From positions 1-5,502 of the IMG/VR virus record IMGVR_UViG_3300045988_051723: a stretch of 5,502 nucleotides of DNA, one strand, 5' to 3'. The notes below the pieces were generated by a model, which worked only from the letters and a program-made list of their open reading frames with translations, was not told the origin of the DNA and ran no database searches. Both the position numbers and the translations under genes were made by a program. The DNA is from a virus. Each line of letters begins with the position of its first letter. Positions within the stretch are counted from its first letter, which is position 1. Positions 2,604 to 5,502 of the stretch are shown in pieces.

Positions 2604-3431
2604 ATGGCAGGATTAGGAGCAATGCTTGCAAGTGGAGCAGCCAAAGCAGGAACATGGTTAGCACAGAACCCAGCAGTCATAACCGGAGCGATGCAACTGC
2701 TGGGCGGTGGACTATCATCAATGTACGGCCAAAAAAGCGAAAACATCAGCCAAGGAAGCAACGTAAGCACAGGAAAGGGCGGTGGAACATCACAAAGCGT
2801 TGCAGAAGGCGGCACGAATGACGAACAGATAATGAAATATCTCAGTCAGTACTACAACTGGCAAGGAGGACAAAATGCTTTTCAAAGTAAGACAAACCGC
2901 GAAAATATGCTCATGCAGATGGGATACAACACATTGGGCGCAATCCAACAAGGAATATACAACCACATCGAGCAAAACGCAGCCATGTCTTACAACAGCG
3001 CAGAAGCGCTAGCAAACCGCAACTTCCAAGAAAGAATGAGCAACACAGCATATCAAAGAGCCGTAGAAGATATGCGAAAAGCAGGACTTAACCCAATTTT
3101 GGCATACGCACAAGGTGGAGCAAGCACGCCGGGGGGCTCAGGCGCAACAATCACAGGCGCAAGCATGGGAATGCCAGTGTCAAGCGCTCTGGGAGTATCT
3201 GCGCTAAGCGGCAACGTGCCAAACAGCTACTACAATAAAAGCATTGCAAAATCAACGTGGTATCAGCTCTCCGAAGCCGTAGGAAGTCAAATGTCAAAAG
3301 GCTATACAAGCCCATACGAACTAACGAAAGACTTGCTAAAAACATACGAACAAATGGAAGATACAGAAAAAACCATTCCATTCCAAACAGGCGGAGGAAG
3401 TTTCCACACAGGAGGAGGTAGAAAAAAGTGA
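2604..3431 (+). CDS. VP2: DNA pilot / minor capsid protein VP2, 275 aa
   Basis: It has a Gly/Ala-rich hydrophobic N-terminus, a low-complexity G/S/Q region, and the block [33 protein letters not shown], which I recognise as characteristic of gokushovirus VP2. It lies directly after VP1. No alternative start exists between the VP1 stop and ATG 2604. Confidence 0.9.
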
Positions 3432-4447
3432 GTTGTTACAAGCCATTAATAAGGCTGTACAACCCGGACAACAAGGAAATCAGCGGACGGGTGTATTCAC
3501 TCGTCCGCCTTTCTCAGTTAAGCGGGAAACAGCTAAAGTATGAAGATTTGATGTATAATCCAAAAGTTATGTTAATACCATGCGGGCAATGCATCGGATG
3601 CAGAATAAGGCAACGAGAGGACTGGACAACACGAATCGAGCTAGAAGCAAGAGATTACCCAAAAGAACAAGTATGGTTTATCACACTAACTTATGATGAT
3701 AACCATGTACCGGGCATGATAGTAAAGACAGGCGAAATCATGCGAAAAGTACAATACACATGGAAGCCAGGAGAGAAGCGCCCAGACAGCGTACAAACTC
3801 TGCTATATGAGGATATTCAAAAATTTTTAAAACGTCTCAGGAAAGCTTACAGGGGCAAATTACGCTATTTTGTAGCGGGTGAATACGGAGAACAGACAGC
3901 AAGGCCGCACTATCACATGATACTATATGGTTGGGAACCAACAGACCTAAAAAACTTGTACAAAATTCACCACAATGGATACTACACCAGCAAGTGGTTG
4001 GCAGACCTCTGGGGCATGGGTCAAATACAGATAGCACAAGCCGTTCCAGAAACCTATAGATATGTTGCAGGGTATGTAACAAAAAAGATGTACGAAATTA
4101 ACGGCCAGAAATCTAATGCATACTATGAGCTGGGACAAACGAAACCTTTTGCTTGCATGAGCCTAAAACCAGGTCTCGGAGATAAATACTATCAAGAGCA
4201 CAAAGCAGAAATATGGAAACAAGGGTACATTCAATGCACCAACGGAAAACAAGCACAGATTCCAAGATACTATGAAAAGCAAATGGAAGCAGAAAACCCA
4301 CAAAGATTGTGGAGAATAAAACAAAACCGACAGAAAAACGCAATGGAACAAAAAAGATTGCAGCTAGAGAATCAAGACTACAAAACAGTCCTAGAGACAA
4401 AAGAACGTGTCACCAAAAAACAAACGAAAAAACGTGGTATTTTATAA
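3428..4447 (+). CDS. VP4: Rolling-circle replication initiator VP4 (HUH endonuclease superfamily), 339 aa
   Basis: The GTG start at 3428 overlaps the VP2 stop (GTGA) and lies 9 nt after GGAGGAGG (3411-3418). Motifs present: [19 protein letters not shown] motif HYH in [10 protein letters not shown] (3908-3916), and the paired catalytic tyrosines YVAGY in [11 protein letters not shown] (Y-x-x-x-Y, as in phiX174 protein A). Confidence 0.95.
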
Positions 4448-4460
4448 TCGGTGTCACCTA

Positions 4461-4500
4461 GCCCAGTACCTATCAAGTAAGGTACTGGGCATTATTATTC
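4461..4500 (+). terminator. Intrinsic-terminator-like hairpin after VP4
   Basis: GCCCAGTACCT (4461-4471) pairs perfectly with AGGTACTGGGC (4480-4490), giving an 11-bp stem and 8-nt loop. It is followed by ATTATTATTC, an interrupted T tract, and starts 14 nt after the VP4 stop. It could instead be a structural signal in the ssDNA. Confidence 0.6.
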
Positions 4501-4504
4501 TAAT

Positions 4505-4554
4505 CGCGCACACACGTACACGCGAAAAGTACACGCGCACGCGTGCGCACGTAT
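4505..4554. repeat. CpG-rich alternating purine-pyrimidine island with an internal palindrome and direct repeats
   Basis: 4505-4524 (20 nt) and 4529-4554 (26 nt) are each perfectly alternating pyrimidine/purine, separated by AAAA. There is a perfect 14-nt palindrome, GCGCACGCGTGCGC, at 4535-4548. GTACACGCG is repeated at 4516-4524 and 4529-4537. AT-rich flanks are ATTATTATTCTAAT and TATTATAATATAAC. Confidence 0.9.
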
Positions 4555-4599
4555 TATAATATAACTTGTTGTAGTCGTAGTAGTAGGGTATGTGGAAAA

Positions 4600-4755
4600 G
4601 TTGAAAACTACCATTTTATAACGACAGAGCGTAAAAAAAACAGCTAAAAAAGTGTTGAAAGATTTGTTAAAAACTTGTTGAATTGTTGAAACACTCTATT
4701 GTGCTAAAGTTTAACAATGTTGAAATGTTGAAAACTATGTTGAAAATGTTGAAAA
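4600..4755. repeat. Iteron array: nine copies of (A)TGTTGAAA(A)
   Basis: Copies: 4600-4607 (GTTGAAAA), 4653-4660, 4665-4672 (TGTTAAAA), 4676-4683 (TGTTGAAT), 4684-4691, 4718-4725, 4726-4734, 4738-4746, 4747-4755. All are in the same orientation. Within the two clusters the starts are 8-12 nt apart. Confidence 0.9.
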
Positions 4756-4782
4756 CGCCTGCGGCGGGCACCTGCGCAAAAA

Positions 4783-4808
4783 GTCAAGATCGCAAAAGCG
4801 ACCTTGAC
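4783..4808 (+). promoter_or_regulatory. Hairpin that sequesters the -35 box of the downstream promoter
   Basis: GTCAAG (4783-4788) pairs with CTTGAC (4803-4808), and TCGC (4790-4793) pairs with GCGA (4798-4801). There is one A/C mismatch and an AAAA tetraloop. The 3' arm contains TTGAC of the -35 hexamer. Confidence 0.55.
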
Positions 4809-4832
4809 AGTTTGCACAGGCAATGATATAAT
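4804..4832 (+). promoter_or_regulatory. Consensus sigma70-type promoter with extended -10
   Basis: TTGACA (4804-4809), a 17-nt spacer, then TATAAT (4827-4832), with TG at 4824-4825 (TGnTATAAT). It is followed by AGGAG (4849-4853) and ATG 4860. Confidence 0.75.
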
Positions 4833-4859
4833 CCGAAATAGAAAAGAAAGGAGACCACC

Positions 4860-5255
4860 ATGAAAAACATCAAGTTCATCAAAGCAAATTACGGCAAACT
4901 GAGCGAACACTTCAAAGCAAAAGAATTTCAGTGCAAAGACAAGAACGAGTACATGTTGGTCTGCGAAGAACTGATAGCAACACTTGAAACAATCAGGGAA
5001 CACTTCAATGCACCAGTAATAATCAACAGCGGATACAGGACACCAAGCTGGAACTTCGAAGTGAGCGGAGCGCCAGATTCAATGCACTGCAACGGCATGG
5101 CCGCCGATATCGTAGTAAAAGGACACTCAAGTAAAGAAGTTGCAAAGTATGCAAGTGAGCTGATGGACACCTTCGAAAGCAAAGGCGGCGTAATCAGATA
5201 CACGAATTTCACGCATATTGATGTACGTGAAGAAAGATACAGAAAGGGGGTGTAA
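4860..5255 (+). CDS. Peptidase M15 family zinc D-Ala-D-Ala carboxypeptidase-like cell-wall hydrolase (putative endolysin), 131 aa
   Basis: LSEHFKAKEFQC, INSGYRTP, SMHCNGMAADI and FTHIDVR match the Peptidase_M15_3 / LAS-metallopeptidase pattern (SxHxxGxAxD and a distal H). Predicted zinc ligands are H76 (5085-5087), D83 (5106-5108) and H119 (5214-5216). ATG lies 6 nt after AGGAG. There is no N-terminal hydrophobic or signal segment. Confidence 0.92.
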   Translation: MKNIKFIKANYGKLSEHFKAKEFQCKDKNEYMLVCEELIATLETIREHFNAPVIINSGYRTPSWNFEVSGAPDSMHCNGMAADIVVKGHSSKEVAKYASELMDTFESKGGVIRYTNFTHIDVREERYRKGV

Positions 5256-5365: not shown

Positions 5366-5502
5366 ATGATGCACAAAACATGGAATGTGCGAGACCAGAC
5401 CGAAGAAAGTCTTAGACTAGAGGCCGAAAGACTATATAAACAGATAGAAGCTGGATTCAAGATGATAAAAAAAGTGTCCAGCTCAGAAGACGCAAAAAAA
5501 AT
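5366..5502 (+). CDS. Hypothetical protein, 5' part of the 81-aa junction-spanning ORF (continues at base 90 after the duplicated 89 nt)
   Basis: ATG 5366 lies 6 nt after AAGGAG (5354-5359). The frame is open to the window end. From 5414 onward it duplicates bases 1-89. Confidence 0.5.
   Translation, partial: MMHKTWNVRDQTEESLRLEAERLYKQIEAGFKMIKKVSSSEDAKK
5414..5502. repeat. Terminal redundancy (right copy)
   Basis: Exact copy of bases 1-89. Confidence 0.9.

Follow-up and report, generated by a model that had tools for sequence, protein, structure and literature searches.

The window, by which we mean the whole 5,502-nt stretch of DNA analysed, holds a circular gokushovirus genome of 5413 nt, with positions 1-89 duplicated at 5414-5502. 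The non-coding interval between its VP4 and peptidase M15 genes contains an array of short repeats. The unit, TGTTGAAA, occurs exactly six times on the + strand, at 4653, 4684, 4718, 4726, 4738 and 4747, and nowhere else on either strand. The expected count was 0.34, and six or more copies were reached in 0 of 200 dinucleotide shuffles. Units with one mismatch were found on the same strand at 4591 (TGTGGAAA), 4599 (AGTTGAAA), 4665 (TGTTAAAA) and 4676 (TGTTGAAT), bringing the total to ten same-strand units within 164 nt (4591-4754). A first-pass annotation had counted nine iterons in one orientation, listing the unit at 4591 separately. It had noticed none in the coding regions, which holds for the exact unit; the only one-mismatch matches beyond the array are four on the - strand, within genes. 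Unit starts lie 12, 11 and 8 nt apart in cluster 1 and 8, 12 and 9 nt apart in cluster 2. This agrees with the 8-12 nt first reported. Such spacings are not helically phased. Tandem Repeats Finder and a repeat finder returned the same arrays. These results confirm that the iteron array is real and confined to a ~205-nt cassette. The features of the region are as follows.

3428-4447: VP4 gene, encoding an HUH Rep (Pfam REP_ORF2-G2P)
4505-4524 and 4531-4554: two perfectly alternating purine-pyrimidine GC-rich tracts, adjoining the AT-rich end of the cassette
4552-4755, + strand: whole oriC-like cassette, ~205 nt, delimited by BLAST boundaries in relatives and by alignments
4552-4564: AT-rich tract TATTATAATATAA, putative duplex-unwinding element 5' of the trios
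4564-4574, + strand: ACTTGTTGTAG, invariant phage-specific 11-mer, candidate VP4 nick/recognition site
4572-4586, + strand: DnaA-trios TAG TCG TAG TAG TAG, the three nearest the box being consensus 5'-TAG-3'
4587-4590, + strand: GGTA, the 4-nt spacer that separates trios and first box
4591-4599, + strand: TGTGGAAAA, predicted DnaA box next to the trios; its complement TTTTCCACA has one mismatch to TTATCCACA
4599-4607, + strand: second tandem box AGTTGAAAA, a predicted DnaA box starting 8 nt past the first
4608-4652: spacer, conserved in length and variable in sequence
4653-4691, + strand: box cluster 1, with TGTTGAAA at 4653, TGTTAAAA at 4665, TGTTGAAT at 4676 and TGTTGAAA at 4684
4692-4717: inter-cluster spacer ACACTCTATTGTGCTAAAGTTTAACA, conserved inside a close clade
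4718-4755, + strand: box cluster 2, with TGTTGAAA at 4718, 4726, 4738 and 4747
4860-5255: peptidase M15 gene

The edges of the cassette fell at 4552/4555 and 4753/4756 in BLAST comparisons with four relatives (L005, L010, L011 and L012), in two of which it was inverted (L011) or both inverted and relocated (L012). The alternating purine-pyrimidine tracts are kept in many relatives and remain in place where the cassette is flipped. A minus-strand hairpin loop, TACTTGATAGG, was noted at 4471-4481. An Rfam 15 scan of 4400-4900 found no RNA family, the best score being 21.7 bits against a cutoff of 100.

The units resemble DnaA boxes. As first reported, the box at 4591-4599 matches the DnaA-box complement at 8/9 positions and the TGTTGAAAA units match TTATCCACA at 7/9. 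Position 6 of TTATCCACA, one of the two that differ in TGTTGAAAA, is normally conserved. The published search rule for a basal unwinding system (BUS), the unwinding module of bacterial origins, takes a box with at most two mismatches to TTATCCACA or to the box of the species concerned, a spacer of 0-16 nt and at least three trios of the form 3'-NAN-5' (PMC6669920; PMC8287927). On the 5'-TAG-3' strand the order is an AT-rich region, at least three trios, a spacer of ~4 nt and tandem boxes TGTGGA.AA (PMC8287927). In B. subtilis (Richardson et al. 2016; PMC6669920; PMC8287927), incC comprises an AT-rich tract, the trios and DnaA-boxes 6 and 7. Its BUS reads AT-rich / TAG TAG AAG TAA TAG TAG / GGCC / TGTGGATT / TGTGGATAA, with boxes 7 and 6 lying 8 nt apart, and the E. 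coli row has the same order but a single box after a 10-nt spacer (PMC8287927). In the window, on the strand whose boxes have the orientation of TGTGGATAA, three TAG trios (4578-4586) and a further TAG (4572-4574) stand 5' of a box with one mismatch (TGTGGAAAA), from which the 4-nt GGTA separates them. The TGTTGAAAA units, with two mismatches, equal the boxes of Ruminococcus albus 7, given as TGTTGAAAA ACC TGTTGAAAA in an oriC/BUS survey (PMC8287927). The trio consensus written here as 5'-TAG-3' is 3'-GAT-5' as written in the literature, and the supplement of PMC8287927 shows it in that orientation for both B. subtilis and E. coli. None of 2000 Markov-simulated genomes contained three consecutive TAGs followed by a box (at most two mismatches) no more than 16 nt away. 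Beyond the trios lies the AT-rich region, with a GC content of 0.27 compared to 0.57-0.63 immediately upstream; it is shorter than the AT-rich unwinding region of B. subtilis, which is a 27-mer. Chromosomal origins usually lie beside dnaA/dnaN. The cassette occupies the VP4-peptidase interval of a phage genome and, because of that location, is an oriC-like element and not an oriC.

The cassette was found in more than 170 distinct gut gokushovirus genomes, across which VP4 identity ranges from 35 to 100%. Among 80 relatives chosen by their VP4, 72 carried it and four more had near variants. Iteron sequence, count (8-9 per genome) and offsets stayed constant over VP4 identity bins from >=78% to <=40%. 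In 130 genomes the box offsets were nearly constant, with modal values of +35 and +89 from the motif start and of +89, +101, +112 and +120 for cluster 1, a minority being shifted by one. The sequence between these boxes varies, and TGTGGAAA and TGTTGAAA swap at equivalent positions among relatives. The best-conserved elements were not the boxes but those of the putative unwinding apparatus: AT-rich side, trios and spacer. The trio string GTAGTAGTAG was invariant in alignments of relatives, the trio-to-box spacer was 4 nt long in 145 of 172 phage cassettes, and the tandem boxes were 8 nt apart in 116 phages and 9 nt apart in 22. Relative to the genes, the cassette had the same orientation in 143 of 174 genomes and was inverted in the other 31; in about one-fifth of the cassette-bearing genomes it was inverted or moved, and in one whole clade it was located between VP2 and VP4. 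Some clades that carry it have no peptidase gene, and the interval between cassette and peptidase varied by hundreds of nt. Such occurrence as a self-contained unit in both orientations is what a function on duplex DNA would lead one to expect. The module is not general to gokushoviruses, since scans of the cultured phiMH2K, SpV4 and Chp2 gave no trio-plus-box signature and no box cluster. Matches to the 23-nt core in three non-microviruses (L038, L081 and L084) were discarded as chance matches because they were low-complexity coding repeats without boxes. BLAST against a plasmid collection returned marginal matches alone, within Acinetobacter coding sequence.

We scanned 185,579 species genomes for three consecutive iterons of which the first was an exact TGTTGAAA, and obtained at least 120 loci. 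About 47 of the matches listed were Oscillospiraceae, Ruminococcaceae, Ruminococcus, Gemmiger or Subdoligranulum by name; dnaA and/or dnaN lay within 15 of the matches listed, and no microvirus genes were seen at the loci among the matches listed. Many of the host contigs are MAGs, and two (L183 and L248) were clearly mis-binned. The dnaA-dnaN spacers of Ruminococcus/Oscillospiraceae genomes had the same grammar as the cassette, with TGTTGAAA as the main box and TGTGGAAA as the secondary one, and a Ruminococcus MAG (L211) carried rnpA, dnaA, the arrays and dnaN in that order, as identified by Pfam. Host oriC loci held 13-29 copies of TGTTGAAA compared to 0-1 of TGTGGATA. At three of the loci (L141, L146 and L172) TGTTGAAA stood 4 nt from (TAG)4-5. 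The host trio-box spacers were GGTA, GGGC, GGGG, GGCC or GTAC, that of B. subtilis being GGCC, and an AT-rich stretch was kept at the matching place in phages and host oriCs. A 31-nt stretch comprising trios, spacer and the box TGTGGAAA was identical between two phages (L010 and L063) and the oriC of the Ruminococcus MAG L211. Window positions 4723-4755 were identical (33/33) to the dnaA-dnaN spacer of an Oscillospiraceae MAG (L176), an identity that is partly by construction, as the iteron itself had been the query of that scan. The 12+9 spacing recurred in many Oscillospiraceae loci, and the full 8, 12, 9 series in Gemmiger formicilis (L212). The DNA-binding helix of DnaA reads GGRDHSTIVY in these hosts compared to GGRDHTTVIH in B. 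subtilis, a difference compatible with an altered box preference.

The grammar of the cassette is thus conserved, independent of VP4 divergence and identical to that of host oriCs. Among the earlier hypotheses, a host-factor array resembling DnaA boxes is supported because the host dnaA-dnaN spacers share this grammar and the R. albus box is TGTTGAAAA; trios and AT-rich tract also lie in oriC order, strand and spacing. Taken as a whole, the first-pass interpretation is partly supported. We consider it likely that the iterons are DnaA boxes of the presumed host lineage and that these boxes, with the sequence on their left side, amount to a ~205-bp imitation of an oriC's unwinding half. Because TGTTGAAA matches host oriC sites, a small rolling-circle phage seems to mimic the origin of its host. 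The resemblance of the phage boxes to Ruminococcus/Oscillospiraceae oriC boxes suggests that the host lineage is Oscillospiraceae/Ruminococcaceae, in the Clostridia (Ruminococcus-type gut bacteria). A host-like origin on a small rolling-circle phage is unexpected, and we know of no DnaA requirement in rolling-circle microviruses. The element was not previously described in the literature found: our full-text search, with most subscription journals outside its coverage, returned no description of the cassette, and a full-text search on origins and DnaA returned no mapped gokushovirus origin. To our knowledge, no origin has been mapped in Gokushovirinae.

We infer DnaA binding, unwinding and a use of the opened DNA. 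On the double-stranded replicative form, host DnaA-ATP would bind the tandem boxes (4591-4607) and the two arrays (4653-4691 and 4718-4755). A DnaA oligomer would grow from the proximal box over the 4-nt spacer onto the + strand TAG trios (4572-4586), and stretching by this oligomer would open the neighbouring AT-rich tract (4552-4564). The opened DNA would serve phage replication in one or both of two ways, which are compatible with each other. Host helicase could be loaded so that the replicative form replicates in a DnaA-dependent way (theta-like or priming), or the invariant ACTTGTTGTAG (4564-4574) could be exposed as a single strand for nicking by VP4.

The 11-mer ACTTGTTGTAG is invariant in alignment A1 except at one T/A position, occurs in 72 of the 80 VP4-selected relatives and is absent from host oriCs. 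A hairpin loop is the usual presentation of a nick site, and phiMH2K and two relatives have a covarying hairpin whose conserved loop contains the 9-mer CTTGTTGTA. In the window, the ACTTGTTGTAG motif is not in a hairpin and sits at the edge of the DnaA-trio array. The CTTGTTGTA core may be the VP4 nick site. Since the invariant 11-mer by the trios resembles HUH nick sites, the phage origin may be located in the cassette region, and to that extent the first-pass proposal of a VP4-dependent origin here may be right. The window has no phiX174-type 30-nt origin (CAACTTGATATTAATAACACTATAGACCAC) within the rep gene; it shares AACTTG alone with that sequence, at 4563-4568, where the bases after it differ from the phiX174 origin and the site is intergenic. 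A more speculative and rather unlikely version is that the cassette is composite, with DnaA melting the duplex and presenting ACTTG/TTGTAG single-stranded to VP4 in place of a phiMH2K-like hairpin or cruciform. If so, the orientation of the cassette and not that of the genes would decide which strand is displaced and packaged, and the phages with an inverted cassette (about one-fifth) would package the non-coding strand. The inverted group includes a whole clade without CTTGTTG on the coding strand. Whichever way the cassette faces, A is in excess on the coding strand (AT skew +0.30 to +0.37), and phiMH2K is A-rich too; this result argues at most weakly against a packaging polarity set by the cassette.

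The same boxes could instead act as a DnaA decoy or sensor, titrating or sensing the host initiator with no unwinding for phage replication, much as E. coli datA or the DnaA-box clusters of B. subtilis do, and in this way block host re-initiation or tie phage gene expression to DnaA status. With ten boxes per genome the multicopy replicative form would offer many sites, and the cassette lies in the accessory-gene region beside a strong promoter. Three-box units also exist outside origins, since many Oscillospiraceae chromosomes bear the same unit (12+9) away from oriC. However, the trios, spacer and AT-rich side would be superfluous for a pure titration site and are the best conserved parts of the cassette, and the 4-nt trio-box spacing is kept in most genomes. 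We regard a decoy as improbable.

The other half of the first-pass origin proposal, that VP4 binds the repeats as Rep binds the iterons at the rolling-circle double-strand origins of pMV158, geminiviruses and circoviruses, is the half that lacks support. The repeats are direct, just downstream of rep and ~100-180 nt from the candidate nick motif ACTTGTTGTAG. In HUH replicons, however, iterons normally covary with their cognate Rep, and the iteron reading is unsupported here because the sequence, number and positions of the repeats are constant while VP4 falls to 35-40% identity. The same repeat occurs in bacterial dnaA-dnaN spacers without neighbouring phage genes, and cultured gokushoviruses with a homologous VP4 have no such repeats, making VP4 iterons very improbable.

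Alternatively, the array might bind another host protein that acts at oriC, such as a Spo0A-like regulator. The 0A box TGTCGAA is one base from TGTTGAAA (TGTTGAA matches TGNCGAA at 6/7), Spo0A boxes overlap DnaA boxes in the B. subtilis oriC, and TGTTGAAA departs from the canonical DnaA box. Against this, TGTTGAAA in host origins sits 4 nt from the trios, the obligatory place of the DnaA box in a BUS, and is freely replaced by TGTGGAAA, a good DnaA box and a poor 0A box; TGTTGAAAA was moreover scored as the R. albus DnaA box in the oriC survey (PMC8287927). A regulator of this kind is extremely improbable.

The two promoter-based hypotheses, phased A-tract curvature activating the promoter at 4804 and reiterated -35-like TTGAAA boxes, can be given almost no weight. 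Every unit contains TTGAAA and an A run, and the array is followed, 50 nt downstream, by a perfect TTGACA-17-TATAAT promoter. Yet a sigma-70 promoter or upstream activator has a fixed position and orientation and -35/-10 pairs, and within the array we found a single weak promoter-like match (9/12), spacings that lack helical phasing, and a cassette that is inverted or relocated in some phages, lies at varying distances from the peptidase gene and persists in clades without it. A single-strand (complementary-strand) origin on the packaged ssDNA, like ssoA, the phiX174 primosome assembly site or G4, would answer the need of microviruses for a host-dependent priming site, of which we know none mapped in gokushoviruses, but such sites require a fixed orientation and extensive folding of the ssDNA; 31 of the 174 genomes have the cassette inverted, and we dropped the idea as negligible because on either strand the cassette folds into less structure than shuffled controls (z = +0.80 and +0.69).

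Read as an imitation of the host origin, the cassette is a precise candidate origin in which host-dependent and phage-specific parts are separate. A rolling-circle ssDNA phage that had a complete DnaA unwinding module of chromosomal type would depend on the host initiator or manipulate it; its replicative form might then persist like a plasmid, or host initiation might be disturbed. As a host signature, the box variant predicts Oscillospiraceae/Ruminococcaceae hosts for a large group of uncultured gokushoviruses, which come from human and animal gut samples. As a possible recruiter of DnaA, the 205-bp element could help vector building in poorly tractable gut Clostridia. A scan of viral contigs for TAGTAGTAG-N4-TGTGGATAA gave 17 matches, on large contigs with BUS-like modules and none of them microvirus-sized; these canonical-box modules suggest that origin mimicry by phages may extend past this group.

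Compared with the B. subtilis BUS, the window has the same elements, order, strand and spacing (AT-rich / trios / GGTA / TGTGGAAA / AGTTGAAAA). It differs in lying on a 5.4-kb rolling-circle ssDNA phage and not by dnaA, in having a distal box weaker than the proximal one, the opposite of the usual case, and in the invariant phage-specific 11-mer that adjoins its trios. The species in which DnaA-trios have been shown to function are B. subtilis and a few others, none of them Oscillospiraceae. With the predicted host oriCs (L141, L146, L158, L176, L211 and R. albus 7) the cassette shares the box variant, the core in which 4 nt separate (TAG)n from tandem boxes, arrays spaced by 8-12 nt, and the 31- and 33-nt identical stretches. 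In contrast, the host origins are longer, contain boxes of either orientation, among them a conserved reverse box ~45 nt away from the trios, space their tandem boxes by 9 nt where the phages mostly have 8 nt, and lack ACTTGTTGTAG; the phage has no reverse-oriented box and an AT-rich tract of just 13 nt. On these grounds the cassette cannot be called a copy of a host oriC. Known HUH double-strand origins include the 30-nt origin of phiX174 (CAACTTG/ATA...), those of the pC194 family (CTTG/ATA) and that of pMV158 (a nick hairpin plus iterons). ACTTGTTGTAG shares the (A)ACTTG core, and VP4 is an HUH Rep, but the nearby phage repeats match host boxes and not a Rep-specific sequence. The DnaA-titrating loci, E. 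coli datA and the B. subtilis DnaA-box clusters, are likewise dense groups of DnaA boxes away from the chromosomal origin, without a trio array or unwinding element. Mobile counterparts are the plasmid and phage-plasmid origins of pSC101, P1 (oriR), F, RK2 and R6K, in which auxiliary DnaA boxes, likewise beside an AT-rich region, recruit the DnaA of the host. These origins have 1-5 DnaA boxes and are opened by their own iteron-binding Rep, and we know of no DnaA-trio array described in any of them. In contrast, the phage, without a plasmid-type initiator gene, carries the full chromosomal unwinding grammar.

The gokushovirus genome in the window is circular and 5413 nt long, with positions 5414-5502 duplicating 1-89, and all of its genes are carried on the + strand.

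295-537, + strand, VP5-like gene
530-925, + strand, VP3 scaffold gene
912-2564, + strand, VP1 capsid gene (Pfam Phage_F, E = 1.8e-137)
2604-3431, + strand, VP2
3428-4447, + strand, VP4, HUH replication protein (Pfam REP_ORF2-G2P, E = 3e-17)
4860-5255, + strand, peptidase M15_3, accessory gene

The repeats sit in the 412-nt non-coding gap between VP4 and the peptidase gene. The first-pass annotation had described them as an iteron array with units 8-12 nt apart within clusters, and a genome-wide count against shuffles confirmed that the array is real. Exact copies of TGTTGAAA were found six times (4653, 4684, 4718, 4726, 4738 and 4747), all on the + strand and nowhere else in the window, against an expected count of 0.34, and none of 200 shuffles attained six. 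One-mismatch units lie at 4591, 4599, 4665 and 4676, on the + strand as well. The start spacings are 12, 11 and 8 in the first cluster and 8, 12 and 9 in the second, as annotated, and repeat-finding tools recovered the same arrays. Elsewhere in the gap, at 4783-4832, the peptidase M15 gene is driven by a TG-extended promoter that matches TTGACA-17-TATAAT perfectly; its -35 box is overlapped by an 11-bp inverted repeat (GTCAAGATCGC AAAA GCGACCTTGAC) that could be an operator or an opposite-strand terminator.

Comparison with the intergenic regions of relatives, which the annotation had proposed as a check, revealed that the repeats, their number and their positions are near-fixed across the gokushovirus genomes that carry them. 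The region was matched by 51 GenBank microvirus records, mainly from faeces of human, pig, monkey and other animals, and the common block, termed the cassette here, was sharply bounded at 4552-4755. The cassette is flipped in place in MG945388 (L011), and inverted and relocated between VP2 and VP4 in KX513864 (L012). In an alignment of 13 copies the most invariant part was not the repeats but TAACTTGTTGTAG-NN-GTAGTAGTAG followed by GTGGAAAAGTTGAAAA (the core). A scan of IMG/VR with ACTTGTTGWAGNNGTAGTAGTAG gave at least 120 matches, and all those listed were 4-6-kb gokushovirus genomes except three, which were rejected as chance matches in low-complexity coding DNA. Among the matches listed, VP4 identity to the window ranged from 95% down to 35%, and the offsets of the repeat units (boxes) from the core were near-constant (modal +27, +35, +89, +101, +112, +120, then the second cluster), with a shift of one in a minority of genomes. 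Between +35 and +89 the length of the gap, 54 nt, was kept, and its sequence was not. In all bins of VP4 identity, from >=78% to <=40%, the most frequent 8-mer was TGTTGAAA, with 8-9 copies per genome. After deduplication, the cassette was oriented as the genes in 143 of the genomes listed and inverted in 31, the inverted group taking in the whole clade (25/25) whose VP4 identity is <=40%.

In an independent set of 80 genomes picked on VP4 similarity alone, the strict core was present in 72 and one-base variants (e.g. TAGTAGCAG) in four. The other four included two contigs that end inside the cassette, the TAG-TAA-TAG variant of L308, and L276, in which the boxes were absent altogether. The cultured gokushoviruses phiMH2K, SpV4 and Chp2 are without the cassette; gut gokushoviruses whose intergenic regions are long therefore appear to have acquired it in a lineage-specific way or to have arrived at it by convergence. 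Two perfect alternating purine-pyrimidine GC-rich tracts, prone to form Z-DNA (4505-4524, 20 nt; 4531-4554, 24 nt), adjoin the AT-rich end of the cassette and are kept in many relatives. They are unmoved in the inverted-cassette genomes L011 and L065, so the cassette has flipped while its flanks stayed fixed. The coding strand is strongly biased towards A rather than T (AT skew between +0.30 and +0.37, reaching +0.59 at VP1 four-fold sites) in all clades (window; L013-L132) and in either cassette orientation; phiMH2K has this bias too, and SpV4 and Chp2 are without it.

Read along the + strand, the cassette has the following order.

+ strand, AT-rich TATTATAATATAA
+ strand, ACTTGTTG
+ strand, TAG TCG TAG TAG TAG
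+ strand, GGTA
+ strand, TGTGGAAAA
+ strand, (A)GTTGAAAA
+ strand, 45-nt spacer
+ strand, four boxes
+ strand, 26-nt spacer
+ strand, four boxes

In the basal unwinding system (BUS) of bacterial oriC, DnaA-trios, repeated 3'-GAT-5' (5'-TAG-3') motifs, lie beside one or two DnaA boxes, separated by a short, usually GC-rich spacer and with an AT-rich region beyond; bound at the boxes, DnaA forms an oligomer that extends along the trios on one of the two strands, and the duplex is opened (PMC8287927, PMC6669920). The B. subtilis element is given 3' to 5' in a supplement as AATAGGTGT / TTAGGTGT / CCGG / GATGATAATGAAGATGAT / AAAAAATAT, which 5' to 3' is AT-rich / TAGTAGAAGTAATAGTAG / GGCC / TGTGGATT / TGTGGATAA (PMC8287927). 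The window agrees with this element in order, strand relation, 4-nt spacer and 8-nt tandem box spacing. The signature of (TAG)3 and a box (<=2 mismatches) within 16 nt arose in 0/2000 first-order Markov simulations of the genome. The cassette has every BUS sequence feature examined and by these criteria would act like the duplex-opening half of a bacterial oriC; it is not itself an oriC, since a phage carries it.

To look for the same boxes in bacteria, we searched 185,579 species, with one genome for each, for runs of three iterons in succession (TGTTGAAA-N0-4-TGTKGAAA-N0-4-TGTKGAAA). This yielded at least 120 loci, on contigs that are mostly MAGs (L183 and L248 are mis-binned). About 47 of the listed loci were named Oscillospiraceae, Ruminococcaceae, Ruminococcus, Gemmiger or Subdoligranulum, about 13 more had other Clostridia or Bacillota names, and none of those listed had VP1 or VP4 genes. 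dnaA and/or dnaN lay within 8 kb in 15 listed loci, where chance would give well under 1%; in the Ruminococcus MAG L211 the gene order is rnpA, dnaA, arrays, dnaN (Pfam). The dnaA-dnaN spacers contain 13-29 TGTTGAAA per locus compared to 0-1 TGTGGATA. The core of trios, spacer and box is as in the phage cassette in four bacterial origins: L146 reads ...ATATAGT TAGTAGTAGTAGTAG GGTA TGTTGAAAC TGTGGAAAAG, L211 reads ...TTATTT TAGTAGTAGTAGTAG GGGC TGTGGAAAAG, and L141 and L158 have trios followed by GGGG TGTTGAAAC TGTTGAAAA. Because host origins share this core of trios, spacer and box, TGTTGAAA holds the position required to be a DnaA box in a BUS. The phages L010 (KT264798) and L063 share 31 identical nt (TAGTAGTAGTAGTAGGGGCTGTGGAAAAGTT) with the L211 origin, and window 4723-4755 recurs without a single change (33/33) in the spacer between dnaA and dnaN of L176, an Oscillospiraceae MAG, an identity partly due to the search pattern. 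A published survey independently gives TGTTGAAAA ACC TGTTGAAAA as the DnaA boxes of Ruminococcus albus 7 (PMC8287927). An Oscillospiraceae/Ruminococcaceae host is suggested by the origin mimicry itself.

The recognition helix of DnaA domain IV is GGRDHSTIVY(S/A) in L211, L146, L158, L141 and L183 and GGRDHTTVIH in B. subtilis, and the Thr to Ser and His to Tyr substitutions coincide with TGTTGAAA-dominated origins. We take the replaced Thr and His to be base-contacting residues in the E. coli DnaA domain IV-DNA structure (1J1V). The changes would fit a shifted box preference, and this helix may identify a lineage whose box specificity has changed. Other Oscillospiraceae loci (L212, L136, L171, L175, L181, L185, L186, L207 and others) have a lone three-box unit with no dnaA nearby and the 12+9 spacing of window 4726-4754; L212 has four boxes with the complete 8, 12, 9 spacing of 4718-4754, and in L184 and L188 the unit adjoins canonical TTATCCAC boxes. 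These units look like DnaA-regulated or DnaA-titrating sites.

Together, these comparisons show at the sequence level that the cassette grammar is conserved, independent of VP4 divergence and equivalent to host oriC grammar. Of the annotation's readings, a DnaA-like host-factor array is the one supported, by the oriC grammar and by the TGTTGAAA boxes that fill Oscillospiraceae/Ruminococcus dnaA-dnaN spacers. Host DnaA-ATP would occupy the boxes of the double-stranded replicative form and reach across the spacer to the + strand TAG trios, and the AT-rich tract would melt as DnaA extends on them. The opened DNA could load helicase, for DnaA-dependent replication or plasmid-like replicative-form maintenance, or could present a nick site. 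The chief alternative, that the cassette serves DnaA titration alone, does not account for conservation being highest in the trios, the spacer and the AT-rich side. The proposal of VP4-binding iterons is disfavoured, as TGTTGAAA is constant across VP4 bins and recurs in bacterial origins. A single-strand origin is disfavoured by the lack of ssDNA structure in the cassette and by the occurrence of both orientations. The suggested promoter roles, as a curved activator or as -35-like boxes, are disfavoured because the cassette flips and relocates relative to genes and promoters, occurs in clades without the peptidase gene and contains a single weak promoter-like match.

Within the DnaA-opened zone proposed here, ACTTGTTGTAG (4564-4574) is near-invariant among phages and was not present in the host origins compared. 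The Bdellovibrio phage phiMH2K has a coding-strand hairpin of 11 bp (z = -3.3) whose 18-nt loop contains CTTGTTGTAA. Two relatives (VP4 54-57% identical) retain the loop motif, and the stems vary by compensatory changes (GGCTAC/GTAGCC, GCGGCTAAT/ATTAGCCGC, GCGGCATAT/ATATGCCGC). In Chp2, CTTGTTGTG is placed where stem and loop of an 8-bp hairpin meet, and a hairpin of SpV4 contains AACTTGATA, the origin core of phiX174. The nick sites of phiX174 and pC194 are CTTG|ATA. These motifs tentatively suggest ACTTG|TTGTAG as a VP4 nick site, placed in the DnaA-opened zone rather than in a hairpin loop, which we regard as possible and rather doubtful; no hairpin was found around 4564-4574. Orientation is a difficulty for this model: CTTGTTG is absent from the coding strand of the clade with VP4 identity <=40%, whose packaged strand would then have to be the non-coding one. 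Base-composition skew is the same in both cassette orientations and phiMH2K is skewed likewise, weakening this polarity test. Outside the cassette, the non-coding strand of genomes of the L048-type clade (VP4 48-59% identical) has a mean of 0.85 extra CTTGTTGTA. Separately, a perfect 11-bp hairpin (4461-4490, z = -6.8) lies directly 3' of the VP4 stop; its loop sequence is ATCAAGTA on the coding strand and TACTTGAT(A) on the other, the latter containing CTTGATA, the phiX174/pC194-type nick core. ATCAAG lies <=200 nt from the cassette in 131/184 genomes and is on the coding strand in the three inspected (L010, L024 and L012), though the L012 cassette is inverted. This hairpin may act as a terminator or as a second element of the origin, or it may contain, on the other strand, the real nick site.

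BUS-like modules with canonical boxes were also seen on large viral contigs of 16-161 kb in IMG/VR (L318, L320, L321, L324, L327-L329, L332 and L333), one example reading AT-rich / CAG TAGTAGTAG GGGC TGTGGATAA TGTGGATAA, then further boxes. No dnaA or dnaN lies beside these modules, and the ORFs flanking that of L321 matched no Pfam family. Origin mimicry may thus reach large dsDNA phages. We found no description in the full-text literature of a complete trio and box module in any virus, and its presence in a rolling-circle ssDNA virus appears not to have been described previously. In the plasmids and phage-plasmids pSC101, P1, F and RK2, DnaA boxes assist the replicons' own initiators, whereas the gokushovirus cassette comprises a complete trio-plus-box module.
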